From contig CBDCSU010000005.1 in the NCBI GenBank assembly GCA_965221775.1, positions 1,152,001 to 1,216,000 of the forward strand: a stretch of DNA of 64,000 bases. The letters run 5' to 3'. This stretch comes from Candidatus Latescibacterota bacterium. GTDB taxonomy: Bacteria > Latescibacterota > UBA2968 > UBA8231. This document shows positions 46,767 to 62,598 of this stretch, one piece after another. The notes below the pieces were generated by a model. The model worked only from the letters and a program-made list of their open reading frames with translations. It ran no database searches and was not told where the DNA came from. Position 1 is the stretch's first letter, and each line of letters begins with the position of its first letter. The position numbers and the translations under genes were made by a program.

Positions 46767-46767
46767 C

Positions 46768-48876
46768 ATGGCCGCGCCCCCGGCCGCCGGTTTCCGCCTC
46801 GGCGTCGACATCGGCGGCACCTTCACCGACGCCACCCTCGTGGACGAGGCCAGCGGCCGGGTCCACATCTGCAAGCTCTCCTCCACCCCCGCCGACCCCT
46901 CCGACGGCTTCCTGCGCATCACCTCCCGCATCCTCGAGCAGGCGGGGGTCTCGCCCGGGGAGGTGAGCTACGTCGTCCACGGGACCACCGTCGCCACCAA
47001 CTCCATCATCGAGGGCCGCCTGGCGCCGACGGGCTTCGTCACCACCGAGGGCTTCCGCGACCTGCTGGAGATCCAGCGCCAGATCCGCGCCTCCCTCTAC
47101 GACGTCCACTTCGAGAAGCCGCCGCCCCTGGTGCCCCGGCACCGCTGCTTCGGCGTGCCCGAGCGCCTCGACGCCTCCGGCGAGGTCGTCCGCCCCCTCG
47201 ACGAGGCCGCCCTCCGCCAGACGGCGGCGCGGCTCCGGGACGAGGGCGTCGAGTCGATCGCCGTCTGCTTCCTCCACTCCTACGTCAACCCCGCCCACGA
47301 GCGCCGCGCCGGCGAGATCCTGCGCGAGCGGTTCGGCGCCGAGGCCGTCTCCCTCTCCTGCGAGGTGGCCCCCGACTTCCGCGAGTACTTCCGCGCCAGC
47401 ACCACGGTGATCAACGCCGGCATCCGGCCCTCGGTGGCCCGCTACCTGGAACGCATCGAGACGCGCCTGCGGGAGGCCGGGCTGCAGGCCCCGCTGCTGC
47501 TCATGCAGAGCAGCGGCGGCGTCTACTCCTTCCGGGCGGCCGCGGAGAAGCCGGTCTTCATGGTCGAGTCCGGTCCGGCGGCGGGGGTGATCGCCGCCGG
47601 GGCCCTCGGCCAGCGGCTGGGGCGCCGGGACCTGATCTCCTTCGACATGGGCGGCACCACGGCCAAGGCGGGCCTCGTCCAGGACGGCGCCCCCGGCATC
47701 ACCAAGGAGTACGAGGTCGGCTCGGCGGCGGTCTCCAGCGAGCACGGGGCCCGGGGCGGGGGCTACCCGATCCGCAGCTCCGTCATCGACCTCGTGGAGA
47801 TCGGCGCCGGCGGCGGCTCCATCGCCTGGATCGACCGCGGCGGCGCCCTGCGGGTCGGTCCGCGCAGCGCCGGAGCCGACCCGGGGCCGGCCTGCTACGG
47901 CGCCGGCGGCCGCGAGCCGACGATCACCGACGCCAACCTGGTCCTCGGCCGGCTGGACCCCGGCTACTTCCTGGGCGGCGAGATCCGCCTCGACGTGGAG
48001 GCGGCGGAACGCGCCGTCCGCGAGCGCTGCGCCGAACCCCTGGGACTGGAACCGGTGGAGGCCGCCCGCGGCATCGTGGAGATCGCCAACGCCGCCATGG
48101 CCGGCGCCCTGCGCCGGATCTCCATCCAGCGGGGGTACGACCCCCGGGACTTCACCCTCGTCGCCTTCGGCGGCGCCGGACCCGTGCACGGCAACCGGCT
48201 GGCGCGGGAGCTGGAGATCCCGGAGCTGCTGGTGCCGCCGAGCCCGGGGACGTTCTCGGCCATGGGCCTGCTGAGCACCGACCTGCGCCACGACTTCAAC
48301 GCCACCCACCTGGAGCCGCTGGCAGCGGCGGGGGCCGATCGCCTGGCGTCCGCACTGGAGGCACTGGAGGCGCAGGGGCGCCGGGCCCTGGCCGCCGACG
48401 GCGTCGACCCGGCGCGCATGCGCTTCGTCCGCCAGCTCGACCTGCGCTACGTGGGGCAGAGCTACGAGCTGGGGGTGGAGGTCGAGGACGCCGGCTTTCC
48501 TCCCGCGGAGGTGCGCCGGCTGGCGGGGCGCTTCCACGAGGAGCACGAGCGCGCCTACGGCTTCAAGGCGCCCGGGGAGCCGGTGGAGATCGTCACCATC
48601 CGCCTGTCGGCGGTGGGCGAGATCTCCCGGCCGGAGCTGCGGCGGCTGGAGGCGGACTCGGGCGCCGGGCCGGCGGGGTCCCGGCTCGTGTACTTCGAGG
48701 AGTCGGGGGGATTCGTGGACTGCCCGGTGTACGAGCGCTCCGGCCTCGGGGCGGGGGCCCGCATCGACGGCCCGGCGGTGGTGCAGGAGCTGGACTCGAC
48801 GACGCTGCTGCACCCGGGGTACCGGGCGGAGGTGGACACCTACGGCAACCTGCTGATCCGGCCGGGTACGGACTAG
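46768..48876 (+). CDS. Hydantoinase A/oxoprolinase family subunit
   Basis: GVDIGGTFTD, HGTTVATN, ESGPAAG, DMGGTT, GAGGGSIA, AFGGAGP. Confidence 0.93.
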   Translation: MAAPPAAGFRLGVDIGGTFTDATLVDEASGRVHICKLSSTPADPSDGFLRITSRILEQAGVSPGEVSYVVHGTTVATNSIIEGRLAPTGFVTTEGFRDLLEIQRQIRASLYDVHFEKPPPLVPRHRCFGVPERLDASGEVVRPLDEAALRQTAARLRDEGVESIAVCFLHSYVNPAHERRAGEILRERFGAEAVSLSCEVAPDFREYFRASTTVINAGIRPSVARYLERIETRLREAGLQAPLLLMQSSGGVYSFRAAAEKPVFMVESGPAAGVIAAGALGQRLGRRDLISFDMGGTTAKAGLVQDGAPGITKEYEVGSAAVSSEHGARGGGYPIRSSVIDLVEIGAGGGSIAWIDRGGALRVGPRSAGADPGPACYGAGGREPTITDANLVLGRLDPGYFLGGEIRLDVEAAERAVRERCAEPLGLEPVEAARGIVEIANAAMAGALRRISIQRGYDPRDFTLVAFGGAGPVHGNRLARELEIPELLVPPSPGTFSAMGLLSTDLRHDFNATHLEPLAAAGADRLASALEALEAQGRRALAADGVDPARMRFVRQLDLRYVGQSYELGVEVEDAGFPPAEVRRLAGRFHEEHERAYGFKAPGEPVEIVTIRLSAVGEISRPELRRLEADSGAGPAGSRLVYFEESGGFVDCPVYERSGLGAGARIDGPAVVQELDSTTLLHPGYRAEVDTYGNLLIRPGTD

Positions 48877-48878
48877 GG

Positions 48879-50225
48879 ATGCGACTCGGCCGGCGATCCA
48901 TCCGGGCGGGCCTCGTGCTGCCGGTGCTCCTGGGCGGCGGGTGGTGCCTCGGCGGCTGTCAGAGCGAGGACCGGGTCGTCATTCAGCTCACCGTCGATCC
49001 CATCGACGATCAAACCCTCGACACGGGGGACGAGGTGCAGCTGACGGTGAGCCTCAGCGGAGGGCCGGGAGACCACTTTCTGCATGCCTACTCCAGCGAC
49101 ACCTCGGTGGTCACCGTATCCGTGAGCGAAGGCCTGCTCACTCTCACCGGGGTCGGAACGGGGACCGCCACCGTCACCGTTTCCGTCTCCGCCCCCACCG
49201 GGAGGCGGCTGCACGCGGCGGTCTTCCGGGTCACCGTCGATTCGGAACTCCAGAGGGCCGCCCGCGAACGCGAGGTCCTGGCCGCCTTCTATCGCGCCAC
49301 CGGCGGCCCCGACTGGAAGACGGCCGCGAACTGGTCGACCGACGACCTGGAGAGCTGGCACGGAGTCACCGTCCAAGACGGACGGGTGACGGCCCTGCTT
49401 CTCGAAGAGAACAACCTGAAGGGTGCCGTTGCCGAGGCCCTTGGGATCCTCGGCCGCCTGGATCACCTGGAGGCGGCCCTCTTCGCCTCGAACGGACTCA
49501 GCGGAGAGATACCCGACACCCTGGCCGGTCTGGAGCCGTTGCGGTTCCTGGATCTGCGGGATAACGACCTGAGCGGCCCGATCCCGGAGGCCCTCGGCCG
49601 CCTCGACAGCCTGCAGGGGCTGAACCTCCCGGGAAACGACCTCCACGGACCGATCCCCGAAGCCCTCGGCCGCCTCTCCGCCCTCTCCCACCTGAGCCTG
49701 GCAGAGAACGATCTGAGCGGACCCATTCCCGAGGCCCTGGGCGCCCTGACCAGCCTCACCTTCCTGCGGCTGGACGGCAACGACCTCACGGGACCCATCC
49801 CCGAAGCCCTGGGCGGCCTTTCCAGCCTCGGGCACCTGAGCCTGGCAGAGAACGATCTGAGCGGACCCATTCCCGAGGCCTTGGCCCGCCTCTCCAACCT
49901 CAGCGGCCTCTTCCTCCAGGACAACGATCTCACCGGCGAGATTCCCGAGGCCCTGGGCAATCTCTCCAACCTCGTCTTCCTCAACCTCTCCCACTGCGAT
50001 CTGTCAGGAAGCGTCCCCGACACCCTGGGCACCCTCTCCCGGCTGTGGACGCTCGATCTCTCCGTCAACCCGCAACTGACCGGCCCTCTTCCCCTGAGTC
50101 TGATCGAGCTGTCGGATCTCAAGCACATCGACTTCCGCGGCACCGGGCTCTGCGCGCCGGCAGACGCCGCCTTCCAGGAGTGGCTCGAAGGCGTTCCCCA
50201 AGCCCATGGCCAGGTCTGCGAATGA
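48879..50225 (+). CDS. Lipoprotein with Ig-like domain and plant receptor-type leucine-rich repeats
   Basis: LGGC lipobox; EREVLAAFYRATGGPDW...WHGVTV cap; ~10 repeats of 24-aa LxxLxxLxLxxNxLSGPIPEALG. Confidence 0.9.
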   Translation: MRLGRRSIRAGLVLPVLLGGGWCLGGCQSEDRVVIQLTVDPIDDQTLDTGDEVQLTVSLSGGPGDHFLHAYSSDTSVVTVSVSEGLLTLTGVGTGTATVTVSVSAPTGRRLHAAVFRVTVDSELQRAAREREVLAAFYRATGGPDWKTAANWSTDDLESWHGVTVQDGRVTALLLEENNLKGAVAEALGILGRLDHLEAALFASNGLSGEIPDTLAGLEPLRFLDLRDNDLSGPIPEALGRLDSLQGLNLPGNDLHGPIPEALGRLSALSHLSLAENDLSGPIPEALGALTSLTFLRLDGNDLTGPIPEALGGLSSLGHLSLAENDLSGPIPEALARLSNLSGLFLQDNDLTGEIPEALGNLSNLVFLNLSHCDLSGSVPDTLGTLSRLWTLDLSVNPQLTGPLPLSLIELSDLKHIDFRGTGLCAPADAAFQEWLEGVPQAHGQVCE

Positions 50226-50276
50226 TACGATCCGAGCGCCCCGACACGGGTCGAGGGACACCGAGATTCGGACGCG

Positions 50277-52529
50277 CTATTTCAGCAGCAACAGACGCCG
50301 CGTCTGCACCTCCTGTGTGGTGGACAACCGATACAGGTATATCCCACTGGCAACAGGCGCACCGCTGTCGTTGCGCCCATTCCAGGCAACCTGATAGCTG
50401 CCGGCGGCCTGTATCTCCTGCACCAGGATGCGTACCCGCTGTCCCAGGACATTGTAAATCGCCAACTCCACAGGGCCGGCCGTGGACAGGGTATAGGCGA
50501 TCCGGGTTACGGGATTGAACGGATTGGGGTAGTTCTCCCCAAGCCCGAAGGTCAGACTTGACACCACGGGCTTGGACGCCTGCGACTCCATGACGGTGAT
50601 GACGGCCTCCCCACTCCAATCCCCTGAGGAGCCGCCAAATCGGGCGCGCACCATGGCTTTGTGCTTCTCGCCCCCCTCCAAGCCGGTGATGGTGTAGGAA
50701 GGTTCGGCGGGGAAGGCGTTGCCGGTGTTGTCGGTCCAGGTCTTGAAGCTCTCGCTCTCCTTGGCCCAGGAAATGCGGTAGTCGGCAGGCTCCTCCGTGG
50801 GTGCCTCCCAGCTGGCCTGGATCGTCCCCGGTTGAGAGCTGACCAAGGTGATCCTCCCTATGTCGCGAGAATCACGCGGGTCGGGCGGCTCCAGCACGAC
50901 AGTATTCCCCTGCGCCGGTCCGGAAGAGATGTCTTGGACTGTGATGACAACGCCGGGCGAGAGGACCAACCCGCCCCCACTGGTGGGCGGATCGGCAGGA
51001 ACGTCCTGAATTGTGACGGCAACGGCATCAGAGCCCGCGGCGCCGTGCTCGTCGGTGGCGGTGAGCGTGAAGGTGATGGTGGTATCAGAGTCCACCTGGG
51101 GCGCAGCAAACGTGGTCGAGAGGGCCGCCGGGTCTCCAAGTGAGATGCCCAAGTCGCCCCGGTCGTGGGTCCACTGGTAGGTGAGAGTATCGTTGTCAGG
51201 GTCAGAGGCCGTTCCGGACAGCGTCACTGCGGAGCCTTCCTGGACGATCTGGTCGGATCCGGCATCGGCAGTCGGCGCGGCGTTGGCAGAAGAAGCCGCG
51301 ACGGTGATGACGGCCTCCCCACTCCAATCCCCCGAGGAGCCGTCGTATCGGGCGCGCACTTTGGCTTTATGCCTCTCGCCCCCCTCCAAGCCGGTGATCG
51401 TGCAGGAAGGTTCGGTGGGGAAGGCGTTGCCGGTGTTGTCGGTCCAGGTCTTGAAACTCTCGCTCTCCTTGGCCCATGAAATGCGGTAGTCGGCAGGCTC
51501 CTCCGTGGGTGCCTCCCAGCTGGCCTGGATCGTCCCCGGCTGAGAGCTGACCAGGATGATCCTTCCTATGTCGCGAGTGCCACGCGAGTCGGGCGGCTCC
51601 AGCACGACAGGGGTAGCCACCGGGGCATCCTGAAGCTCGTAGACCCGGACCCAGTCCACCAGGGCCTCGTTCGGAAACGTGCCGGTATGAGCGTTGCCTT
51701 GGCGCCAACTCAATCCGGTGGACAGAATGACGTATCCATCACTGTGCGACAGGCCCTGGTACCTTTGTACCATGAGCTGGTCGTCCGCGTAAAAGGTGTA
51801 ACTGTCCGGTGTCCACGCTACGGCGAAGACGTGAAACTGTCCGTCGTGCATCGGAGCGAACTCCAAATCGGCAGCGTGCGAATTGCCTTCCCAATGCACG
51901 GCCAGGGTATAGTGATTGCTGACGTACACCGACTCGAGGATGTCGATTTCGGCTCCGTCGGAGGGCCCATCGACACCGCCATCTGCAGCCGTTCGGTCTC
52001 GATTGTCGTTCTGGAGCCAGAAGGCAGTGTGCATGCCGTCTGCGGTCGGCGCGATCCGGACGCTGGCCTCGAAGTATCCGTACGTCTGCTCGAACTTTCC
52101 CTTGGAGTCGATCGCAGCGGCCTTGACCAGGTCAGATGTCTGGTCAGAGGTCTGAGGATCCCGGGTATTGCGCAACACCAAGTGGCCGTCTCTCAGGCTG
52201 ACGTTGTCGTGCTCATATCTCCACCTGATTCGGTGTCCGCCATGCCAGCGCTCAGATCGAAATGCCTCACTCCTGTGATTCCACTTCGACGCATCAAACG
52301 TGGTGCCGTTGAAGTCATCGCTCCATACCAGGACCCAGCGTTTGCCGGTAGGGGGAGAGGGAGGGACTGCATCGGCCACATGCGGATAGAGTAGGAACAG
52401 CGATACCACTCGCGTAACGATGGCCCTGGCCGACCAGGCCTCTGTATCTCGACACTCTCGCTTGTACAAGCTCAATTCCTGTCCAGTTGCGTTCCATCGC
52501 ACTCTTCGGGTGCACAATAGAGCACTCAT
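50277..52529 (-). CDS. Secreted GH16 glycoside hydrolase with FN3-like x2, PKD-like and FlgD-Ig domains (start uncertain)
   Basis: WSDDFNG, YGYFEA, AFWL, EIDILE catalytic motif, VDWVRVY; ADAGSDQ PKD; NYPNPFNP...ASGIYLYRL. The start at 52529 is chosen by homology of its leader to that of the 54586 gene. Confidence 0.85.
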   Translation of the reverse strand: MSALLCTRRVRWNATGQELSLYKRECRDTEAWSARAIVTRVVSLFLLYPHVADAVPPSPPTGKRWVLVWSDDFNGTTFDASKWNHRSEAFRSERWHGGHRIRWRYEHDNVSLRDGHLVLRNTRDPQTSDQTSDLVKAAAIDSKGKFEQTYGYFEASVRIAPTADGMHTAFWLQNDNRDRTAADGGVDGPSDGAEIDILESVYVSNHYTLAVHWEGNSHAADLEFAPMHDGQFHVFAVAWTPDSYTFYADDQLMVQRYQGLSHSDGYVILSTGLSWRQGNAHTGTFPNEALVDWVRVYELQDAPVATPVVLEPPDSRGTRDIGRIILVSSQPGTIQASWEAPTEEPADYRISWAKESESFKTWTDNTGNAFPTEPSCTITGLEGGERHKAKVRARYDGSSGDWSGEAVITVAASSANAAPTADAGSDQIVQEGSAVTLSGTASDPDNDTLTYQWTHDRGDLGISLGDPAALSTTFAAPQVDSDTTITFTLTATDEHGAAGSDAVAVTIQDVPADPPTSGGGLVLSPGVVITVQDISSGPAQGNTVVLEPPDPRDSRDIGRITLVSSQPGTIQASWEAPTEEPADYRISWAKESESFKTWTDNTGNAFPAEPSYTITGLEGGEKHKAMVRARFGGSSGDWSGEAVITVMESQASKPVVSSLTFGLGENYPNPFNPVTRIAYTLSTAGPVELAIYNVLGQRVRILVQEIQAAGSYQVAWNGRNDSGAPVASGIYLYRLSTTQEVQTRRLLLLK
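50593..51608 (-). repeat. Internal direct duplication of a ~310-bp FN3-like module (about 50593-50900 and 51301-51608)
   Basis: VLEPPD..RDIGRI.LVSSQPGTIQASWEAPTEEPADYRISWAKESESFKTWTDNTGNAFP occurs twice with near-identical DNA. Confidence 0.9.
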
Positions 52530-52551
52530 CTTCGAGCCCGGCATCGCTGTG

Positions 52552-52855
52552 GACCGGCGGCTTCGCCTTGGGCGTCCACCCGGGGCCGCGGGCACAGACT
52601 CCGGCCCCCCCTCAAGGGCCGAATCTCATCCCTTGAGGGTGACCCCGGGTCCCGTGCTGGCATCCCCACGTGGAACGCGCGGAGGAAAAGGAGGGAGATG
52701 ATTTACACGTGTATAATGGGGAATATACACGTGTAAATCAAGCTTTTTTGACTTCGCTCCTCCGAGGGTCCATCCTCGATGGTCGCAGGAGTGTCCAACG
52801 GAACTCCCTCTTTGGGGAGCGGGTCGGGCGTGGTCACCGGGTTGGCACGGCGAGC
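52552..52855. repeat. Left arm of ~300-bp diverged inverted repeat flanking the LacI gene
   Basis: Aligns by eye to the reverse complement of 54203-54511 (e.g. ggcgtccacccggggccgcgggcac, gggtgaccccggg, cgtggaacgcgc, tgatttacacgtgta, ggcgtggtcaccgggt). Confidence 0.9.
52699..52740. promoter_or_regulatory. Twin LacI-type operators forming a 42-bp palindrome, overlapping a TATAAT -10 box
   Basis: TGATTTACACGTGTATA-N8-TATACACGTGTAAATCA; ACACGTGT cores 22 bp apart; TATAAT at 52712-52717. Confidence 0.8.
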
Positions 52856-52878
52856 CTTCTGGGGGACAGGCAAGGGCC

Positions 52879-53901
52879 ATGAGCAAGAAACGGGTCACCA
52901 TCAAGGACATCGCTCGGGAGCTGGGGATTACCCACCCGACGGTGTCCCGGGCCCTGTCTCAGAACCCCGAGGTTTCCGCCCTGGTGACCGAGAAGACCCG
53001 AGAGCGGATCAAGCGGCTGGCCGCGGACCTGGGCTACACCCCCAACCTGATGGCGAAGGGGGTCGTGACCGGACGCACGGGCACCCTGGGCCTGCTGACC
53101 TACCAGCTCAACCGCGAGATCCATGGCACGTACGCCGATGAGATTCTGAAGGCGGCGGACCGGCGGAACTACCGGCTCCTGGTGAGCCTGGACGCCTATC
53201 CGCGTGCTCCGATTCTACCAGAGGAGCAGGGCCGGCAGATCCAGCAGACGGTGGCCCGCGGCGTCGACGGTCTCCTGATCTATACCCGCGGGGAGGGGGG
53301 AGAGTCCGAGCGCATTCTCAAGGCGGCCGAGGGTTTGCCCGTAGTGACGTTTGGCTATACGACGAGCAAGGATCTGAGCGGCGTCGAGCTGGACGAGACG
53401 GCGGGTTTCTTCGAGGTCACAGAGCATCTGATCCGACTCGGGCACGAGCGGATCGGCTTCATCGGCTCGGACTGGCATCTGGATCGCGTCGGTTCCGCCA
53501 AGGCGCAAGGCTACTTCCGGGCCATGCAAGAGCACCACCTGACCCCGGAGCGCCTGCCTGCTACTCATCTGGTTCGATCAGGCTATCAGTTGGGAAAAAC
53601 AACCCTCGACCGGTTCACGGCCTATGTCTGCCGGACCGACTACATTGCCATCGGGCTCTGCCGCGGGCTGCGGGAAGCGGGGCTGCGCGTTCCCGAGGAT
53701 GTGGCCGTGGTGGGGCAAGGCGATCTGGAGGTGTCAGCCTACATGACGCCGGCCCTGACCACCTTGGCCACCCCCTACCAAGAGATCGCCGACACGGTGA
53801 TGGACCTGATGCTGGAGTGGCTGCAAGGCGGCGCCAGCCCTCGGAAAGCCACCCTGACCTACCGCCTCATCGTGCGGGAGTCCTGCGGAGCGAGCTCCTG
53901 A
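52879..53901 (+). CDS. LacI-family transcriptional regulator
   Basis: VTIKDIARELGITHPTVSRAL HTH, LGYTPN hinge, LGHERIGFI, VPEDVAVVG, PALTT, LIVRESC. Confidence 0.95.
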   Translation: MSKKRVTIKDIARELGITHPTVSRALSQNPEVSALVTEKTRERIKRLAADLGYTPNLMAKGVVTGRTGTLGLLTYQLNREIHGTYADEILKAADRRNYRLLVSLDAYPRAPILPEEQGRQIQQTVARGVDGLLIYTRGEGGESERILKAAEGLPVVTFGYTTSKDLSGVELDETAGFFEVTEHLIRLGHERIGFIGSDWHLDRVGSAKAQGYFRAMQEHHLTPERLPATHLVRSGYQLGKTTLDRFTAYVCRTDYIAIGLCRGLREAGLRVPEDVAVVGQGDLEVSAYMTPALTTLATPYQEIADTVMDLMLEWLQGGASPRKATLTYRLIVRESCGASS

Positions 53902-54202
53902 GCAAGCGCAGATTGTAGAGCCCATCAGCTCTCTCAAGCACGTGCGCATAGTCCGCATCGTTTGCGCACTGGCGAGGATCGGGAGCCACAATCTGCGGAC
54001 GGCCTTCCGGGCTCACGCTATTGCAAGACCTGCGGGAGCCGCTCAACCCCTCGAAGTGCCCGGCCAACACGGCCGATTCCTTGGACGGAGCACTCTTTCG
54101 GTACGTGTACGTGGTTCCCGTATCCGTATCTGCCAGGGCTTGCGAGCCTCCATGTCGAGGATCTCTCCCCCGTCCATAGGGAGGGGCATGAACCGCCTTC
54201 TC

Positions 54203-54511
54203 GCTCGCCGTGCTGACCCGGTGACCACGCCTGAGCCCATCTAGTCCCAGCACAGTGCTCGCTCCGCCGCTCCCCGTACGGGGAGTCCCACTTGGAACAC
54301 TCCCGCGGTCATCGAGGGGACTTGCTTTCACACGTGTATATCCTCACTGTTCTACACGTGTAAATCAGGATCTTTCCCTCTTCGCGCGTTCCACGAGGGA
54401 TGCGAGCACGGGCCCCGGGGTCACCCAAGGAATGCGATTCAGCCCTTGAGAGGGGGCGCTCCGGAGCGTGCCCGCGGCCCCGGGTGGACGCCAAAGGCAA
54501 AGCCACCGGTC
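54203..54511. repeat. Right arm of the inverted repeat flanking the LacI gene
   Basis: Reverse-complement homologue of 52552-52855 with indels. Confidence 0.9.
54326..54367. promoter_or_regulatory. Second pair of LacI-type operators
   Basis: TTTCACACGTGTATA and CTACACGTGTAAATCA; cores at 54330 and 54354. Confidence 0.75.
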
Positions 54512-54585
54512 AGAGTGGCGGTCCCCTGATGTAGGCGGCGGAGGTAACAAGCCGGACGGACGCAAGTCCTGGTTGCCGGCAGAAG

Positions 54586-57500
54586 ATGACCTGCACAACC
54601 AACCTGAGGGCTGCCTCCGTCTTGGCGAGGCTGGCGGCCGTCTGTCTTCTGTGTCTGTTGCCGGGAACCCTGTCCGAGTCGGAGGTGGAGGGACAGGGCG
54701 GAGACGAGGATGGGGGGGAGGCGGTGCCCTCTCGTCTGTACTGGACGGACGCGGGCACGGACAAGATCCAGCGCTCCCTCCTGGACGGCTCCGAGGTGGA
54801 GGACGTGGTCACCGGTCCGCGCCAGCTTCGGGGCCTGGCCGTGGATCTGGCCGGCGGCCGGGTCTACTGGGCCGACCGCCGCTCCGGGAAGATCCAGCGG
54901 TCCGATCTGGAGGGCTACGGGGAGCGGGACGTGGTCACCGGCCTGCGCCATCCCCGCAGCCTGGCTCTGGACTCGGCGGCCGGCCACCTCTACTGGGTCG
55001 ACGCCGGCACCGACCGGGTCCAGCGGTCCGACCTGAACGGCTCCTATGTGCAGGACCTGGTCACCGAGGGCCTGCAGATCCCGGTGGGCCTGGCCCTGGA
55101 CCCGGACGCCGGCCATCTCTACTGGGCCGACTCGGGCACCGACAAGATCCAGCGGTGCAATCTGGACGGCGCCGGGGTGGAAGATCTGGTCTCCGGCCTG
55201 CACACGCCCCAGGACCTGGCTCTGGACCCGGGGGCCGGCATGATCTACTGGGCGGACTCGGGTACGGACAGGATCCAGCGGTCCAACCTGGACGGCACCG
55301 GGGTGGAGGACGTGGTCACCGGCCTGCGCCTGCCCCAGGCGCTGGCTCTGGACGCGGCGGCCGGCCACCTCTACTGGGTCGACGCCGGCACGCGCAAGAT
55401 CCAGCGCTGCAACTTGGACGGCACGGGGGTGGAAGATCTGGTCACGGGGTTGCTCCTGCCCTGGGGCCTGGACCTGGCGTTGACCGGTCCGACCAACCGC
55501 GCCCCGACCCTGGCGCCGATCACGGACCAGACCTTGTTCGCCGGTGACCGTGTGCGCTTACGCCTGGAGGGGCAGGATCCCGACGGCGACGACCTGACCT
55601 GGGAGGCCGAGTCCAGCGACGAGGAGGTGGCCACGGTCTCGGTGGCGGCCGGGGTGCTGCTCGTTGAGGCCGTGGGCCCCGGTCAGGCGGCGACCACGGT
55701 GACCGTCCGCGACCCGGACGGCCTCCGAGCCGCGCAGGGCTTCACGGTGACCGTGCCGTCCAACCGGCCTCCGGTGGCGGTAACCTGGCTCTACTGGACC
55801 GACGCCGGCAGCGGCAGCATCCGGCGCTCGCGCCTGGACGGGTCGCAGGTGCAGGACGTGGTCGCCGGCCTGGGGCAACCGCGGGGCCTGGCCCTGGACG
55901 CGGCCGGGGGGCGGATCTACTGGACGGACAGCCGCGCCGACAAGATCCAGCGGGCAGCCCTCGACGGGTCGATGATCGAGGATCTGGTGACGGAAGGGCT
56001 GCGGTCGCCCTCGGGCCTGGCCGTGGACCCGGCGGGGGGCCAGGTCTACTGGAGCGACTACGGCGCCCGCCGCATCCAGCGGGCCGACCTCGACGGCGCC
56101 AGCGTGGAGGACGTGGTCACCCGCGGCCTGCGCGAGCCTCTGGGCCTGGCGGTGGATGCGTCCGCCGGGCGCCTCTACTGGACCGACTGGGGAGCCGACC
56201 GTGTGCAGCAGTCCCGCCTTGACGGCAGCGGAGTGCGCAGCCTGGTCACCACGGGCCTGCAGTCTCCGCAGGACATCGCCGTGGATCCGCTCGGCGGCCA
56301 TCTCTACTGGGCCGACTTCGGCACCGACAAGATCCAGCGATCCCGCCTCGACGGCTCGGAGGTGGAGGATCTGGTCGCCGAAGGGCTGCACGCCCCCCAT
56401 GGCCTGGCTTTGGACGCGGCCGGCGGCGGGCTCTACTGGACCGACTACGGCACCGGCCGGATCCAGCGCGCCAACCTCGACGGGTCCGAGGTGGAGGACG
56501 TGATCACGGAAGACCTGGACACGCCCTACGGCCTGGCCCTGGGGGCGGGACTGCCGGCGCGGCGGGTGCGGGCCGGCCACGAGCCGGACACCCTGTCGCT
56601 GGCCGGCCGCTTCCTCGACCCGGAGGGCGGGGCCCTGAGCTACGGCGCGGTCTCACGGGACACGTCGCTGGCGTCGGCCGAGGTCTCGCGGGACACCCTG
56701 ACCATCACGGGCGTGGCCCCCGGACAGACCTCGATCGCCGTCACCGCCCGCGACCCGGAGGGGCTGCAGACCACCTTGCCCCTGGCCCTGCGCGTGCTGC
56801 CCCCCGCCAACCGGCCACCGGTCCTGTCGCCGCTCTCGGACCTGGCCGCCCTCGCCGGCGACACCCTCACCGTCGGCATCGAGGCCACCGATCCCGACGG
56901 CGACAGTCTCCGCTACGAGGCTGCCTCCGCCGACACCGCCATCGCCCAGGCCGGTACCGCCGACTCGGTGATCACCCTGCTTCCCATCGCGGCGGGCGAG
57001 ACGACGGTCGCCGTCACGGTCCGCGACGACAGCCTGGCCGTGGCCGACACCTTCGGGGTGACGGTGGCGTGGCCCAACCGGGCGCCGCAGCCCGGCCGTC
57101 TGAGGGCCCGCCAGGTGTTCCTGGGCGGGGTGGCCAGGATCGTCCTGCGCCGGGAGTTCACCGACCCCGACGGCGACAGCCTGAGCTACACCGCGGCTTC
57201 GCGGGACTCGAACGTGGCCACGGTCGAGGTTTCCCGCGACACCCTGACGATCACCCCGGTGGCCGCCGGCCAGACGGCGATCGACATGACGGCCACCGAT
57301 CCGGAGGGCCTGCAGGCGGCCGGGTCCTTCGCCCTCACCGTCCGGCGCCGCCCCCCGCCCCCACCGCCCGGAGGCGGAGGCGGAGGGGGAGGAGGTGGTG
57401 GAGGTTTCTTCATCCCCCCTCCCCCGCCTCCTCCGCCCCGGACCACCAACCAGGCCCCGGTCTTCCCCGAGGCGCCGAGCGCGGAGCGCACCCTGGCCGA

Positions 57501-60500
57501 AAACACCCCCGCCAACCGGAACATCCAGCACCCGGTGCGCGCTACCGACGCTGACAACGACCGCCTCACCTACCTGCTCTCCGGCACCGACGCGGACAGC
57601 TTCTCCGTGGTCTCCACCAGCGGCCAGCTGCGCACGCGCTCGGGCATCACCTACGACTTCGAGCTCCGGGACAGCTACCAGTTGCTCCTGGAAGCCGCCG
57701 ACGGCTACGGCGACACCGCCGACATCGCCGTCACCGTCCACCTGTCCGACATCGACGAGCCGCCCCGGCCGCCGGCCCGGCCGCAGGTCGAGCCGGCCTC
57801 CTCCACGAGCCTGACCGTGACCTGGACGGAGCCAGTCAACACCGGCCCCGACATCGATGACTACGACGTGCAGTACCGCAAGAGCGGCAGCTTTCTCCCC
57901 TGGCCGCACAGCGGCCCCGGTACTTCCACCACGATCCCGGACCTGGACCCGGGCACCCGCTACGAGGCGCAGGTGCGGGCCACCAATGCCGAAGGCACCG
58001 GCGGGTGGTCGGCCTCGGGCTTCGGCAACACCAGCGCCAATCAGCGGCCCGTCTTCGACGAGTCCGCCCCCACCCGCAGTCTGGCGGAGAACACCGCGGG
58101 CCCCCAGGCCATCGGCAGTCCGGTGACCGCCACCGATCCTGAGTTCACCTCCATCACCTACCAGCTCTCTGGAGGAGACGCGGCCTCTTTCACCATCGAC
58201 GAGACCAGCGGCCAGCTGCGCACGCGCTCGGGCGTCGACTACGACTTCGAGACGAGGAGCCGCTACTCGGTGAGGGTGCAGGCCGAGGACGAGCACAACG
58301 GCCGCACGACGATCACCGTGACCATCGACGTGACCGACGACGACAACGAGCAGCCCGAGCGGCCTGACAAGCCGACGGTGACGGCCTCGACGTCCAGCAG
58401 TCTGGCCATCCGCTGGACGGCCCCCGACAACCCGGGACCGGCCATCAACGACTACGATGTCCAGTACAGCGAGGATAGCGGGGCTTTCGAGGACTGGTCC
58501 CACACCGGCCCCGGCACGGGCACGACGATCACCGGTTTGACCGCCAACACCCTCTACCAAGTACAGGTGCTGGCGCGCAGCGACGAGGGCGAGAGCCCCT
58601 GGTCCGAGTCGGTCGAGGCCACGACCAGCGCCAACCGGGCGCCCACCTTCAACGAGGGGACGAGCACCACGCGCCGTTTGGCCGAGAACACCACCGGGAC
58701 CCAGGACATCGGCAACCCGATCACCGCCACCGACTCAGACGGCGGTACCCCGGTCTACGCCTTGGCCGGCACCGATGGGGCCCGCTTCGACATCGACGCG
58801 GACAATGGACAGCTGCAGACCCGATCCAACGAGACCTGGGACTTCGAGGCGAAGTCCCGCTACGAGGTAACGGTGCGCGCCGATGACGGTCAGGGCGGCA
58901 GCAACACCATCGAGGTGGCGATCCATCTGACGGATCAGCAGGAACCGCCCGAGACCCCCTCGGCGCCCGGCGTCTCGGCGGCCTCCTCCACCAGCCTGAC
59001 CGTGACCTGGTCGGAGCCGGTCAACACCGGACCCGACATCAGCGACTACGACATCCAGTACCGGCTCAGAGACACCGGCAGCTTCCGGGGCTGGACCCAC
59101 AACAGCGCCGAGCGCAGCGCCACGATCAACCTTCTGATCCCGGACTCCACCTACCAGGTGCAGGTGCGGGCCCGCAACGCCGAAGGCGCCAGCGGCTGGT
59201 CGCCGTCGGGCTCGGGCACCACCGACCCCAACGGGCTGCCGGTCTTCGCCGACGGGTCGAGCGCCACCCGCCGCCTCGACGAGAACACCGCCGGCGTGCA
59301 CACCGTCGGCGATCCGGTGAGGGCAACGGATCCGGAGCAGACGACCCTGACCTACAGCCTCGAGGGCGCCGACGCCGACTCCTTCACCGTCGACACCCGC
59401 AACGGTCAGCTGCGCACCAGGAGCGGCCAGACCTGGGACTACGAGACGAAGTCGAGGTACTCGGTGGACGTGAAGGCCATCGACGGCCACAAGGGGGAGC
59501 GCACGATCCCGGTGACCATCGACCTGAACGACCTCAACGAGCCGCCGGTCTTCACCAGCGCCGCGGCCCTGGAAGCGGCCGAGAACCAGACCTTCGCCGG
59601 CCGCGTGGAAGCCGAGGATCTCGACAGCGTCGACGGAATCACCGGCTACACGATCACCGGCGGCGCCGATCAGAGCCTGTTGGAGGTCAACAGCGCCGGC
59701 ACCCTGACCTTCCAGGAGGCCCCCGACTTCGAGAGTCCCTCGGACGCGGGCGGCAACCGACAGTACAACGTCACCGTCACCGCCACCGGCGGCACGGGAG
59801 GCAGGGCCCTGACGGCCTCGCAGGCGATCGCCGTCACCCTAACCGACGAGAACGAGCCGCCCGTCTTCACCAGCGCCGACACCATCGAGGTGAAGGAGAA
59901 CATCCGCCTCGCCGGCCCCGTGGTGGCCCGGGACGCCGATGCCGCTGACGGCATCACCGGTTACGCCGTCACCGGCGGCGCCGACCAGGACGACTTCGAG
60001 ATCGCCGGCACGAACCAGCTGCGCTTCACGGCGGACCCCGACTTCGAGCGCCCGGCCGACTCCGGGGGCGGCAACGACTACAGCGTCGAGGTCACGGCCA
60101 CCGGCGGCGCCGACCCCCGGGACCTGACCGCCGCCAAGACGGTCGTGGTCCTCGTGGAGGACGTGAACGAGCCGCCGGGCCAGCCCGATCCGCCCACGGT
60201 CAGCGACGAGACGGAGAGCAGCCTCACCGTGAGCTGGGACGAGCCGGCCAACACCGGCCCCGTCATCAGCAACTACCACGTGCAGTACCGCCGCAGGGGC
60301 GCCTACATCGCCTGGTCCGACAGCGGGGCAGCGAGGTCGCGCACGATCACCGGCCTGCGCTCCAGCTCGACCTACCACATCCAGGTGCAGGCCAAGAACG
60401 ACGAGGGCGAGGGACTCTGGTCGAATGCCGGCAGCGGCCGTACGCACGAGGCGCCGACCGTCTCCCGCGTCGCCTTCACGTCAACCCCGGCCACGGGCCA

Positions 60501-62160
60501 GAGCAACGCCTACAAGCTCAACGACACCCTCGACGTGACCGTCACCTTCAGCGAAGCGGCGACCGTCACCGGAACGCCGCAGGTCGACCTGACCCTCGGC
60601 TCCACCGAGCGCCCGGCCGACTACGAGAGCGGCTCGACCACGACCCAGCTGCTGTTCCAGTATGTGGTGCAGGACACCGACGAGGACGACAACGGCGCCG
60701 CCATCAACCAGAACGGCCTCAAGCTCAACAGCGGCCGCATCTTCATGCTCAGGAACAGCACCACGGTCAACGCCGATCTGGTCCACTCGGCCGTCGCCAG
60801 TCAGTCCCGCCACAAGGTCGACGGTATCGCGCCGATGTTCACGAAGGCCGAAGTGAATGACGACAAGCTGACGATAGAGTACGACGAAGTGCTCGACGGG
60901 GATACAACGCCGGCGCCCGCCGACTTCGCGGTCACCGTAGATGGCAGGTCGCGGAATGTCGAGTCGGTTGCTGTACGCGACAGCAAGGTGAAGCTCGACC
61001 TCGCGTCGGACGTGACGTCGGTACAGGTCGTGCTGCTTGGCTACACGCCCGGGACCAACCCGATCCGCGACCGGTCCAAGAACCCGGCCATTGCGCTGGA
61101 AGACGAAACGGTGACGAATCTGGACCAACGTCTGGCGCAGATCAATCTGCCCGAAGGGTTCCAGATTCGTGTGTACGCCGAAGGGGTGCGGGGCGCACGC
61201 TCGATGAGCCTCAGCCCGAACGGCACCCTCTACGTCGGCACCCGCTCCAGGGGCCACGTGTACGCGATACGCGACGAAGATGGCGACCACAACGCGGAGC
61301 GGATCATCACCCTGGCCAGCGGCCTCTATTACCCCAACGGTGTCGCCTTCAAGGACGGCAGTCTCTACGTAGCCGAAGCCCTCCGCATCCTGCGTTACCC
61401 CAACGTCGAGAATCGCCTCACGAACCCGCCGCAGCCGCAAGTCGTCAGCGACGACTTTCCCTTCACAAGCGGAGATGGCCATATCTGGAAATTCATCCGC
61501 TTCAGCCCCGACGATTCACTGTACGTGCCGGTGGGCTCGCCGTGCAACATCTGCAATCCGGGCAATCGATACGCCGTAATCGGCAGGGTAAGCGCCGATA
61601 GCACGTTCACTACCGTGGCGCGCGGCATTCGCAACACCGTCGGCTTCGATTGGCACCCGGACACCCACGAATTGTGGTTCACCGACAACGGACGAGATCG
61701 CATGGGTGATGACCAGCCGCCTGACGAACTGAACAGAATTTCCGCCGATGGTCAGCACTTCGGCTATCCCTACTGCCATGGCGCCGATACTGCCGATCCG
61801 CGATTCGGCTCTCAGCGTCCCTGCAGCGAGTTCGTGGCGCCGGTCATGGAACTGGGGCCGCACGTTGCGGCTCTGGGAATGCGTTTCTACACCGGCAGCA
61901 TGTTCCCAGAGCAGTACCGCAACCAGATCTTCATCGCAGAACACGGGTCGTGGGACCGAAGCAGCAAGGTCGGTTACCGCGTAACCCTGGTGCGCCTGAA
62001 TGGCAACGAAGCGACCAGCTACGAGGAATTCGCAACAGGCTGGCTACAGGGAGAAACGTACTGGGGCCGGCCGGTCGACATCCTCGTCATGAACGACGGC
62101 TCCCTGTTGGTGTCAGACGACCATGCCGGCATGATCTATCGGATCAGCTACTCGGAGTAA
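54586..62160 (+). CDS. 2524-aa surface protein: two YWTD (LDL-receptor class B) propellers, Ig domains, Pro/Gly linker, cadherin/FN3 stalk, SwmB-like repeat, C-terminal glucose/sorbosone dehydrogenase-family domain
   Basis: 12 LYWTD/IYWAD-type repeats; NxAPxF..DxD cadherin units; SLTVTW.EP FN3 units; LPEGFQI..YA, YVPVGSPCNIC, GIRNTVGFDW, WFTDNGRD, PPDELN, HVAALG, AEHGSW, GRPVD, SDD. Confidence 0.92.
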   Translation: MTCTTNLRAASVLARLAAVCLLCLLPGTLSESEVEGQGGDEDGGEAVPSRLYWTDAGTDKIQRSLLDGSEVEDVVTGPRQLRGLAVDLAGGRVYWADRRSGKIQRSDLEGYGERDVVTGLRHPRSLALDSAAGHLYWVDAGTDRVQRSDLNGSYVQDLVTEGLQIPVGLALDPDAGHLYWADSGTDKIQRCNLDGAGVEDLVSGLHTPQDLALDPGAGMIYWADSGTDRIQRSNLDGTGVEDVVTGLRLPQALALDAAAGHLYWVDAGTRKIQRCNLDGTGVEDLVTGLLLPWGLDLALTGPTNRAPTLAPITDQTLFAGDRVRLRLEGQDPDGDDLTWEAESSDEEVATVSVAAGVLLVEAVGPGQAATTVTVRDPDGLRAAQGFTVTVPSNRPPVAVTWLYWTDAGSGSIRRSRLDGSQVQDVVAGLGQPRGLALDAAGGRIYWTDSRADKIQRAALDGSMIEDLVTEGLRSPSGLAVDPAGGQVYWSDYGARRIQRADLDGASVEDVVTRGLREPLGLAVDASAGRLYWTDWGADRVQQSRLDGSGVRSLVTTGLQSPQDIAVDPLGGHLYWADFGTDKIQRSRLDGSEVEDLVAEGLHAPHGLALDAAGGGLYWTDYGTGRIQRANLDGSEVEDVITEDLDTPYGLALGAGLPARRVRAGHEPDTLSLAGRFLDPEGGALSYGAVSRDTSLASAEVSRDTLTITGVAPGQTSIAVTARDPEGLQTTLPLALRVLPPANRPPVLSPLSDLAALAGDTLTVGIEATDPDGDSLRYEAASADTAIAQAGTADSVITLLPIAAGETTVAVTVRDDSLAVADTFGVTVAWPNRAPQPGRLRARQVFLGGVARIVLRREFTDPDGDSLSYTAASRDSNVATVEVSRDTLTITPVAAGQTAIDMTATDPEGLQAAGSFALTVRRRPPPPPPGGGGGGGGGGGGFFIPPPPPPPPRTTNQAPVFPEAPSAERTLAENTPANRNIQHPVRATDADNDRLTYLLSGTDADSFSVVSTSGQLRTRSGITYDFELRDSYQLLLEAADGYGDTADIAVTVHLSDIDEPPRPPARPQVEPASSTSLTVTWTEPVNTGPDIDDYDVQYRKSGSFLPWPHSGPGTSTTIPDLDPGTRYEAQVRATNAEGTGGWSASGFGNTSANQRPVFDESAPTRSLAENTAGPQAIGSPVTATDPEFTSITYQLSGGDAASFTIDETSGQLRTRSGVDYDFETRSRYSVRVQAEDEHNGRTTITVTIDVTDDDNEQPERPDKPTVTASTSSSLAIRWTAPDNPGPAINDYDVQYSEDSGAFEDWSHTGPGTGTTITGLTANTLYQVQVLARSDEGESPWSESVEATTSANRAPTFNEGTSTTRRLAENTTGTQDIGNPITATDSDGGTPVYALAGTDGARFDIDADNGQLQTRSNETWDFEAKSRYEVTVRADDGQGGSNTIEVAIHLTDQQEPPETPSAPGVSAASSTSLTVTWSEPVNTGPDISDYDIQYRLRDTGSFRGWTHNSAERSATINLLIPDSTYQVQVRARNAEGASGWSPSGSGTTDPNGLPVFADGSSATRRLDENTAGVHTVGDPVRATDPEQTTLTYSLEGADADSFTVDTRNGQLRTRSGQTWDYETKSRYSVDVKAIDGHKGERTIPVTIDLNDLNEPPVFTSAAALEAAENQTFAGRVEAEDLDSVDGITGYTITGGADQSLLEVNSAGTLTFQEAPDFESPSDAGGNRQYNVTVTATGGTGGRALTASQAIAVTLTDENEPPVFTSADTIEVKENIRLAGPVVARDADAADGITGYAVTGGADQDDFEIAGTNQLRFTADPDFERPADSGGGNDYSVEVTATGGADPRDLTAAKTVVVLVEDVNEPPGQPDPPTVSDETESSLTVSWDEPANTGPVISNYHVQYRRRGAYIAWSDSGAARSRTITGLRSSSTYHIQVQAKNDEGEGLWSNAGSGRTHEAPTVSRVAFTSTPATGQSNAYKLNDTLDVTVTFSEAATVTGTPQVDLTLGSTERPADYESGSTTTQLLFQYVVQDTDEDDNGAAINQNGLKLNSGRIFMLRNSTTVNADLVHSAVASQSRHKVDGIAPMFTKAEVNDDKLTIEYDEVLDGDTTPAPADFAVTVDGRSRNVESVAVRDSKVKLDLASDVTSVQVVLLGYTPGTNPIRDRSKNPAIALEDETVTNLDQRLAQINLPEGFQIRVYAEGVRGARSMSLSPNGTLYVGTRSRGHVYAIRDEDGDHNAERIITLASGLYYPNGVAFKDGSLYVAEALRILRYPNVENRLTNPPQPQVVSDDFPFTSGDGHIWKFIRFSPDDSLYVPVGSPCNICNPGNRYAVIGRVSADSTFTTVARGIRNTVGFDWHPDTHELWFTDNGRDRMGDDQPPDELNRISADGQHFGYPYCHGADTADPRFGSQRPCSEFVAPVMELGPHVAALGMRFYTGSMFPEQYRNQIFIAEHGSWDRSSKVGYRVTLVRLNGNEATSYEEFATGWLQGETYWGRPVDILVMNDGSLLVSDDHAGMIYRISYSE

Positions 62161-62598
62161 CCCCATCTCTGGCGGGACCCGGAATTTCCCCCTACCGCCG
62201 CGGGTGGGCGCCGCAGTTGGCTCGCGACCAGACTCCGCGGAACCGCTCCCCAAACCAAGTGGTGGCCGAGGCGGCATCCTCTCCCCCAAGCAATTCCGCC
62301 CTTTCGGAGGAGCAGAGGCAGCCACGGCGGCTCCTGATGGGCAGCTACCAAGGGCGGGCTCAGGACCGGGAGCCGCCATCCGCAAGGGAGCCTCCAGAGG
62401 TGACGTCAAGGGGGTTGCCATGCGGGCTCAGGCTTCTGCGCGAGCCGATCGGAAGGGCGAGAGGGAGCTACCTCTGCATGCATGCATTCATGTATACTAT
62501 CCGGCCGGGCGGCTCCCCTGCCCTTGACGGCTCCGGGGCAAGAGACCTTGAGGTCTCCCCCGTTCGCCAATAGTGACCGACAAATCGAAGGCTTCGTA

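Follow-up and report, generated by a model that had tools for sequence, protein, structure and literature searches.

Paired operators are a known feature of the LacI family of repressors. In the RafR regulogs of Enterobacteriales and the ScrR regulogs of Burkholderiales, as described in PMC4052901, a repressor with a helix-turn-helix (HTH) domain and a sugar-binding core is matched with CG-centred even palindromes, two of which, separated by about two helical turns, occupy a divergent intergenic region that adjoins the regulator gene, with autoregulation being likely. The same source gives even palindromes with a central CG for 1173 of 1303 LacI-family regulators and autoregulation for 72%, reports peaks at 13, 22 and 32 bp in the distances between paired sites, and describes certain regulogs with obligate double sites 21-22 bp apart (PMC4052901). 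Here, a 64,000-nucleotide (nt) stretch of a Candidatus Latescibacterota genome (the window; positions 1,152,001 to 1,216,000 of contig CBDCSU010000005.1, assembly GCA_965221775.1; genome G000, 5.36 Mb) was analyzed, in which a LacI-family repressor gene (lacI, 52879-53901, plus strand, 340 amino acids (aa)) is bracketed by two inverted arms leading outward into a GH16 glycoside hydrolase gene (50277-52529, minus strand) on the left and the gene of a 2524-aa secreted or surface protein (54586-62160, plus strand) on the right. The locus resembles the RafR and ScrR regulogs in repressor architecture, palindrome type, site spacing and position beside the regulator gene. Unlike in these regulogs, the whole control region, not a single site, is doubled in inverted orientation around the regulator, and control is directed not at an operon for sugar transport and catabolism but at a GH16 enzyme together with a giant adhesin-like protein. 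The locus is a variant of the well-known LacI double-operator divergon, an instance of regulatory copy-and-paste and no new kind of system. We favor, with some reserve, the reading that the duplicated control region puts the GH16 and the 2524-aa gene under one local repressor, through predicted binding to both arms.

The left arm (52552-52855) comprises nearly the whole 349-bp GH16/lacI intergenic region (52530-52878). The right arm (54203-54511) is an inverted copy of this control region; its outer end is directed at the ATG of the 2524-aa gene, whereas on the inner side 24 nt are missing before the point equivalent to the lacI ATG would be reached. A repeat search of the region resolved both arms into colinear inverted blocks (I1-I7) that are 78-93% complementary, and in a MAFFT alignment of the entire arms 213 of 274 positions were identical (77.7%), with 65 gap columns. 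Identity amounted to 116 of 142 positions (81.7%) in the outer leader half (52552-52698) and to 70 of 95 (73.7%) in the inner half (52741-52855), which contains 53 of the gap columns. When the arm was compared with its own genome by BLAST, 52552-52742 matched 54321-54511 with an E-value of 7e-41 (80.9% over 199 columns), and a second block paired 52821-52855 with 54203-54237 (88.6%). Upon direct reading, weak similarity continued up to both start codons (GCCGG..GAAGATGA), with about 52 extra bases on the right. These observations confirm what a sequence-only reading of the window had described, namely diverged inverted arms with indels, each holding two palindromes, and a weaker similarity running to the two outward start codons. 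Its proposal that a bidirectional cassette had been duplicated in inverted orientation stands insofar as the full control region is present twice and inverted, but the right copy is no longer bidirectional: a 28-nt deletion in its inner half takes out the promoter block that faces lacI in the left arm. Conversely, a 31-nt stretch that follows the boxes in a related genome (G041, see below) is present in the right arm and missing from the left, so that the right arm was not copied from the present left arm; both arms derive from an older full-length region. Among the publications listed by a literature search, none used the phrase 'duplicated intergenic region'.

The palindromes of the arms were analyzed at the level of the window and of the genome. 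ACACGTGT occurs four times in the window, at 52705, 52727, 54330 and 54354, always within the arms; the expected count was 0.44, and four sites were reached in none of 100 shuffles. The whole genome contains six such sites, including these four. The predicted left double operator (52705-52734) consists of the cores 52705-52712 and 52727-52734, 22 bp apart from centre to centre and embedded in a 42-bp palindrome (52699-52740), and the predicted right double operator (54330-54361) of the cores 54330-54337 and 54354-54361, 24 bp apart. Among 1477 CACGTG cores in the genome, 36 adjacent pairs lie within 8-60 nt of each other, and AT-flanked pairs spaced by 22-24 bp exist at three places, which are the left arm, the right arm and C6:569910/569932. 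AT-flanked CACGTG cores number eight in the genome, and five of them are located inside the arms and the C6 region. The latter belongs to a second lacI gene, the C6 paralog (87% identical protein, 90% identical DNA), which carries two CACGTG cores upstream with a spacing of 22 bp, and a 96-nt partial arm copy (78%) was found immediately upstream of it (C6:569842-569937). Two remoter LacI paralogs (65% and 56%) possess other, unrelated upstream motifs. A fourth copy of the double box, with 21-bp spacing, was obtained in G041, a genome of another genus; G041 and G082 show the same coordinates and site and are probably a single genome, G082 being assigned by its label to another genus within this family. 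The central CG is retained by eight of the eight boxes in the four copies (left arm, right arm, C6 paralog, G041), and by the criterion of PMC4052901, applied in silico, even CG-centred palindromes adjoin lacI in all four. The boxes follow this LacI clade at the paralogous locus and in another genus. In form and in their spacing of 21-24 bp, the arm boxes are thus supported in silico as candidate LacI-family double operators. Among the publications listed by a literature search, none dealt with a bacterial LacI operator, so that no printed link of the ACACGTGT core to LacI was found.

Promoter candidates were collected with relaxed criteria (-35 element starting with TTG, spacer of 16-19 nt, -10 element whose second base is A and whose sixth is T). 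Elsewhere in this lineage, promoters have a strong TTGACA -35 and a weak -10 element. This search yielded an outward layout common to all four copies, in which the -35 element sits 2-3 nt ahead of the inner box, which itself falls within the spacer, the -10 element is placed between the boxes and the outer box begins 1-4 nt past the -10. For the left arm, the candidate (52713-52741, minus strand) is composed of TTGATT (52741-52736), a 17-nt spacer and CATTAT (52718-52713), the outer box beginning 1 nt after the -10; for the right arm (54322-54350, plus strand) it is composed of TTGCTT (54322-54327), 17 nt and CACTGT (54345-54350). The corresponding elements are TTGACT, 18 nt and TATTAT at the C6 paralog, and TTGACG, 17 nt and TAATGT in G041. 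With the promoters being predicted ones, this layout would represent a classical repression arrangement. A separate candidate promoter for lacI itself (52748-52776, plus strand; TTGACT, 17 nt, CATCCT) is predicted just beyond the inner box. With these candidates, transcription would begin near 52706 (minus strand), 54357 (plus strand) and, for lacI, 52783. The pattern of the lacI candidate, TTGAC(T/A), 17 nt and CA(T/A/C)CCT, is common to the three copies facing a lacI gene or relic, and it is this block that is deleted in the right arm. The right arm has therefore kept the boxes and the outward half and lost the half that had nothing to drive, which is the strongest internal argument that it is functional, and in the outward direction only. 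A call of a plus-strand terminator, composed of the 42-bp palindrome and a T-run, was rejected, since no gene reads into it and the other copies lack the T-run, which belongs just upstream of the lacI -35 element.

Between the boxes and the start codons lie two predicted leaders, a left one of about 177 nt (52530-52704, minus strand; predicted 5' untranslated region (UTR) of GH16) and a right one of about 229 nt up to the start codon (54362-54585, plus strand), homologous to the left leader up to 54511. It is conceivable, albeit very improbable, that the arms mainly conserve a cis-acting leader for the outward genes, be it a structured RNA in the 5' UTR or a short upstream open reading frame (ORF). 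The 150-nt leader is indeed the best-conserved part of the arms (81.7%), and in both leaders a frame of 45-47 codons stays open behind an equivalent ATG, the left stop overlapping the GH16 start when inspected by eye. However, the leaders folded no better than shuffled sequences (z -0.46 for the left, -0.10 for the right), an Rfam scan of 52000-55000 returned only a plant microRNA model at an E-value of 0.7, which corresponds to chance, and of the 44 pairs predicted by alifold on the two leader sequences, only three carry changes on both sides. The open frame was rejected as a gene because strain variants in the left leader, a 5-nt insertion behind 52603 and a 1-nt deletion at 52612 in Logan contigs, break it, and because openness over 45 codons has, by a rough calculation, a chance of about 40% at 70% GC. 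In addition, the leader was not found in the C6 paralog or G041 copies.

Taken together, these features would fit the following mechanism. The 349-bp GH16/lacI intergenic region would act as a divergent control region equipped with two operators at 22-bp spacing, one promoter reading outward and another one serving lacI; within the outward promoter, the inner operator would occupy the spacer and the outer operator would cover the predicted start site. An inverted copy of this region would have been placed beyond the other end of lacI and joined to the 2524-aa gene, bringing along its leader and start-codon context. Dimers of the LacI-family protein would bind both box pairs, probably cooperatively within a pair, and shut both outward promoters until a sugar effector releases them, so that one local repressor would gate the GH16 enzyme and the giant protein together. 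The right copy has since lost its predicted lacI-facing promoter, which had nothing to drive, but the boxes and the outward half were kept. The module of lacI plus operators is shared with another genus, and the block is a 12.36-kb mosaic insertion. Of this picture, the anatomy, the number of copies, the conservation across loci and genera and the fixed orientation are shown, and the binding, the repression, the promoters and the effector are inferred.

Several observations weigh against control of both genes by this one repressor. A scan of 52400-54700 for consensus sigma-70-type promoters gave no promoter, the candidates passing the relaxed criteria only, and the right-arm hexamers TTGCTT and CACTGT are weaker than those of the other three copies. 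The right-arm boxes are 24 bp apart instead of 21-22 bp, the flanks of the boxes are not alike among the copies, and three of the four window boxes read TACACGTGTA, which matches the CopY/BlaI-type pattern TACAnnTGTA. Similarity between the arms falls within the range of neutral divergence at 4-fold sites (0.83-0.85), so that conservation by itself is no proof of function. In G041, the intact lacI has no box upstream and ACACGTGT is not in excess (13 versus 10 in the control). Boxes were present in none of nine same-genus relatives; the footprint therefore rests on two genomes and on four copies of shared ancestry. Finally, the sole contig from an RNA library that clearly stems from the organism spans the 5' end of lacI alone: this 239-nt metatranscriptome contig (run X19) covers 52841-53079 with one difference at a depth of 2.3 and is a weak hint of lacI expression. 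We hold the one-repressor reading with only slightly better than even confidence because the right-arm promoter is weak and because binding and transcription are predicted ones.

Part of the same evidence bears on the alternative that the right arm is a decaying by-product of the assembly of a mosaic island, the 2524-aa gene being driven otherwise or poorly expressed. This would agree with the weak hexamers and the 24-bp spacing of the right arm, with its inner half, in which there are a 28-nt deletion and many gaps, with a left-right divergence of 18-27%, comparable to that of neutral 4-fold sites, and with an island that is a patchwork of paralogous and foreign pieces. We nevertheless consider this unlikely, as both right-arm ACACGTGT cores are intact although only six exist in the genome, decay is focused on the gene-less side with 81.7% identity in the outward half, and the right arm extends to the start-codon region and was kept in three sampled populations.

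The match of three window boxes to TACACGTGTA raises the alternative that the boxes are operators of another regulator, for example a winged-helix repressor of the BlaI/CopY type, and that their nearness to lacI is incidental. The cop-box pattern reads TACAnnTGTA, as also given in PMC7253601; the genome contains seven such sites and one gene of the Penicillinase_R family (C5:492636-492977). That gene, however, has a different palindrome twice in its own upstream region (AACTAA..TTAGTT) and no TACAnnTGTA; the boxes of the paralog and of G041 do not fit TACAnnTGTA and keep the CACGTG core; and the central CG, a mark of LacI sites, is found in eight of eight boxes, which occur only beside lacI genes or relics. 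This makes a BlaI/CopY-type regulator improbable in our view. In the region G000:C5:492300-492640, the AACTAA..TTAGTT palindromes flank a TTGACA/TATGTT promoter of this sole BlaI/CopY gene and are probably its own operator.

Within the preferred reading of a single local repressor, the repressor itself was well recognized as a member of the LacI family. Its LacI HTH (PF00356, residues 7-56) scored 43 bits against a cut-off of 27, its effector domain scored 107 bits for PF13377 (Peripla_BP_3) and 54 bits for PF00532, and the full-length protein aligned to structures of PurR, CcpA and LacI with E-values of 1e-24 to 1e-31. In the lac (O1/O2/O3) and gal (OE/OI) systems of E. coli, several operators of one LacI/GalR-family repressor are likewise distributed over hundreds of bases, and E. 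coli LacI loops DNA by means of a C-terminal tetramerisation helix located at approximately residues 340-357. The sequence-only reading had pointed out that some members of the family loop DNA. The protein encoded here matches the 360-aa E. coli LacI over residues 2-328 and then ends, and this alignment showed no C-terminal tetramerisation segment, so that LacI-type looping between the arms is not indicated. Moreover, unlike in the looped lac and gal operators, a distance of 1626 bp separates the two box pairs, each of which precedes a gene of its own; two independent promoters are therefore the simpler reading.

The sequence-only reading had further suggested that the unit could be portable or invertible. 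In fimS of E. coli and the capsule invertons of Bacteroides, inverted repeats also flank a segment between outward genes. Such invertons have short, near-identical repeats and a nearby site-specific recombinase, and both orientations coexist. For the locus described here, Logan contigs of three independent DNA studies (X1, X5 and X7), in which rare variants are dropped, were mapped onto 51800-55300. In X1, record 2 spans 52271-52908 and records 5-7 tile 53749-55010, in both cases without a difference; in X7, 52457-53011 is spanned by record 21, and records 25-27 together cover 53686-54850; in X5, records 14, 15, 18 and 19 cover both arms. No strand-switch joints were detected in these contigs, which show the orientation of the window only, although rare forms could be missed. 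In line with the earlier statement that the window has no recombinase gene, no recombinase, integrase or transposase family was identified by Pfam among 37 window ORFs, a list that does not cover every stretch of the window. Unlike the repeats of invertons, the arms are 300 bp long and 78% identical with indels, no recombinase was found and one orientation was seen.

The arms also share with miniature inverted-repeat transposable elements (MITEs) of the Correia or ERIC type that a short non-coding regulatory unit is present in more than one place. Correia, ERIC and similar elements occur in tens to hundreds of copies and have terminal repeats and target duplications. In contrast, BLAST of the genome yielded no further full arm copy, so that the 5.36 Mb contain two full copies plus a partial one, each of them next to a lacI gene; none was found in 40 relatives, and G041 contains no arm copy beyond short patches. 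A dispersed MITE or repetitive extragenic palindromic element, which the genome and related metagenome-assembled genomes (MAGs) might have revealed, is not borne out. That an invertible switch, or a mobile element with lacI as cargo, has the arms as its inverted repeats is hardly credible to us. Inverted repeats of about 300 bp do bracket a 1.35-kb segment, the lacI module looks horizontally shared, and the surrounding 12.36-kb block is flanked by an imperfect 13-nt direct repeat; on the other side, the arms end at start codons and not at target duplications, and the island ends lack a terminal inverted repeat. The single orientation in three studies, together with the negative results for a recombinase among the 37 ORFs scanned and for extra arm copies, leaves both the invertible and the MITE reading unsupported.

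The 12.36-kb block was delineated by comparison with relatives. It extends over 50247-62604 and comprises the GH16 gene, the left arm, lacI, the spacer, the right arm, the 2524-aa gene and a 440-nt tail. In the same-genus genomes G007 and G002, the gene of a leucine-rich repeat (LRR) protein (48879-50225 in the window) directly abuts a sulfatase gene, with overlapping stop and start, and in G006 the hydantoinase A gene abuts the sulfatase. Homology to G007 and G002 ends at 50246, and homology to G007, G002 and G006 restarts at 62606. The borders are marked by imperfect 13-nt direct target repeats at 50234-50246 and 62605-62617, each with 11 of 13 positions matching G007 at the LRR/sulfatase junction. 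A relic of the earlier start codon of the sulfatase remains at 50222, and the sulfatase now starts at the ATG 62599, not at 62482. No terminal inverted repeats were found at the island ends, the alignment score being below the shuffle mean, and Pfam revealed no mobility genes in the island, only GH16, lacI and the 2524-aa gene, in an analysis without a tRNA scan. The block is absent from the syntenic site of the close relatives G007 and G002 and is flanked by direct repeats, as expected of a genomic island, and the comparison identifies it as an apparent mosaic insertion specific to this species. The bases before the sulfatase start are a recurrent insertion point (48876-50246 and 62599; G006:C1:4752566-4752573; G007:C1:1387096-1387107). 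The mosaic character is visible in the 2524-aa gene, the body of which (54627-61089) is 83% identical to G007:C1:3251587-3258055 at another locus. This G007 homolog differs in its upstream region as well as in its first codons, which argues that the right arm gave the recruited gene a new promoter, leader and start. As no counterpart of the G007 neighborhood was found in G000, translocation and duplication plus loss are indistinguishable.

For lacI, the comparison points across genera. In the housekeeping genes encoding Lon and HflX, identity is 95% to G002 and G007 (3978 nt) but only 70% to G041 (over 1268 nt). In contrast, lacI DNA is 87.5% identical to that of G041 and at most 74% to those of G002 and G007. 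Since lacI is closer to another genus than to genomes of the same genus, the lacI module looks horizontally shared, and a transfer of lacI between lineages found in the same kind of samples is likely on this comparison. The lacI copies of the window, C6 and G041 are equidistant from one another at 4-fold sites (0.84), at about the species distance between G000 and G007 (0.83-0.85). G041 has an intact LacI that is 85% identical (locus L117). Its double CACGTG box lies about 5 kb from this intact lacI, between the divergently oriented gene of a 1530-aa Calx-beta protein and a lacI relic, which has kept the first 15 codons, 14 of them identical, and a fragment of residues 257-286 (83%) in another frame. 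Sequence past the G041 boxes is homologous to the inner half of the arms. The G041 lacI features are located at 3584-4618 and 9671-9800 of L221 (G041:C1:1136000-1153999). The box region of G041 has apparently outlasted its own lacI.

Across 76 genomes of the family, the strict double-box pattern was found in G000 only, and a relaxed pattern in 23, the matches in all except G000 and G082 being GC-rich. These GC-rich matches are mostly one conserved stretch in 16 genomes of one genus, and none adjoins a LacI homolog; among 25 box-pattern loci from relatives, one, that of G041, adjoins a LacI homolog. Same-genus orthologs (L026-L028, 74% nt identity, the level of the C4 paralog) have no AT-flanked boxes. 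A footprint from LacI orthologs of 53% identity in other MAGs was discarded, because these have a different, well-conserved promoter and leader and no double box and are therefore uninformative on this operator. Such orthologs of 52-54% identity (L119-L132) are present in many MAGs labeled Latescibacterota or Gemmatimonadota, with a highly conserved TTGACA promoter in the region about 200-260 nt upstream of the LacI match; a conserved leader of about 200 nt follows this promoter and is a candidate 5' UTR element. Of the earlier term 'portable', only the evolutionary sense is thus retained, given a lacI of 87.5% nt identity across genera compared with about 70% for housekeeping genes and a species-specific 12.36-kb insertion. 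We tentatively raise the wider idea, doubtful at present, that lacI and the double-box region form a portable plug-in cassette among co-resident sponge symbionts, which moves between genera and duplicates within genomes, its control region being fused to recruited giant surface-protein genes.

Pfam analysis upheld the assignment of all three genes, LacI, GH16-FlgD and the 2524-aa protein. That both outward genes encode large secreted enzymes holds clearly for GH16 only: its product has PKD, fn3 and a C-terminal FlgD_ig/Por_Secre_tail domain besides GH16, and its closest solved structures are laminarinases (E-value 1e-13). The 2524-aa protein contains YWTD (Ldl_recept_b) propellers, fn3, cadherin and Big_9 domains and a C-terminal GSDH/DUF7133 domain; as judged from its domains, it consists mostly of adhesin-like repeats with one GSDH-like domain and is not clearly an enzyme. 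Its YWTD/Ldl_recept_b repeats are encoded by tandem 126-nt units from 54739-54990 onward, the first two of which are 71% identical, and repeats like these exist in at least six other genome loci. The body of the GH16 gene is 85-93% identical to a paralog at C6:442395-445832, the matching part of which is C6:442453-445832, and the 5' end differs beyond 52431; the ATG at 52529 is the inferred start, from the similar N-terminus of the paralog with the same Arg-rich motif. Within its Ig-like/fn3 part, the GH16 gene has a 311-nt direct repeat of 93% identity (50592-50902 and 51300-51610), of which the C6 GH16 paralog has additional copies, so that the repeat number differs between the paralogs.

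The right arm faces, on its inner side, a spacer (53902-54202, from the lacI stop to the arm) that had been described as non-coding. In agreement with this, the spacer gave no Pfam match at E<=10, its GC content is flat over the codon positions (0.63/0.60/0.64), and it has 15-, 5- and 3-nt deletions in run X7. For the same reasons, namely no Pfam match, flat codon GC and strain indels, a minus-strand ORF (53867-54331/54190) was rejected as a gene, and a second lacI relic sought on the minus strand of the spacer was not found. On the plus strand, 53909-54163 weakly resembles LacI residues 179-271 (21 bits, equaled in 3 of 300 shuffles, no Pfam support), a resemblance that could be due to chance or to the remnant of an earlier gene of the LacI family.

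Among the other genes of the window, two more encode eukaryote-like or surface proteins: the LRR protein at 48879-50225, which carries a Big_2 domain, and an NHL/FlgD_ig protein at 10651-12306. A hydantoinase B/A pair (45045-48876) precedes the LRR gene. The gene divergent from the C6 lacI paralog (G000:C6:570049-570529; L021 10050-10529) has a product of only about 160 aa; visual inspection suggests a signal peptide and a beginning that is carboxypeptidase-regulatory-like, followed by low complexity, and the gene may be truncated.

The growth of regulons is usually attributed to new sites arising through point mutation or being brought in by mobile repeats. At this locus, a whole 300-bp control region with its leader and start-codon context has seemingly been copied onto a second gene, and its unused half is decaying, so that the arms offer a datable natural example of regulon growth through control-region copying. 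If the reading is true, one LacI-type sugar sensor co-controls a GH16 glucanase-like enzyme and a 2524-aa YWTD/cadherin/fn3 protein of eukaryote-like character. Eukaryote-like domain proteins are often discussed as host-interaction factors in the sponge-symbiont literature. Should the more tentative idea of a portable cassette be true, the display of host-interaction proteins (YWTD/cadherin here, Calx-beta in G041) would be sugar-gated and the inverted arms would record one event of gene recruitment. The locus provides a handle on the regulation of giant surface proteins in uncultured, sponge-associated Latescibacterota.

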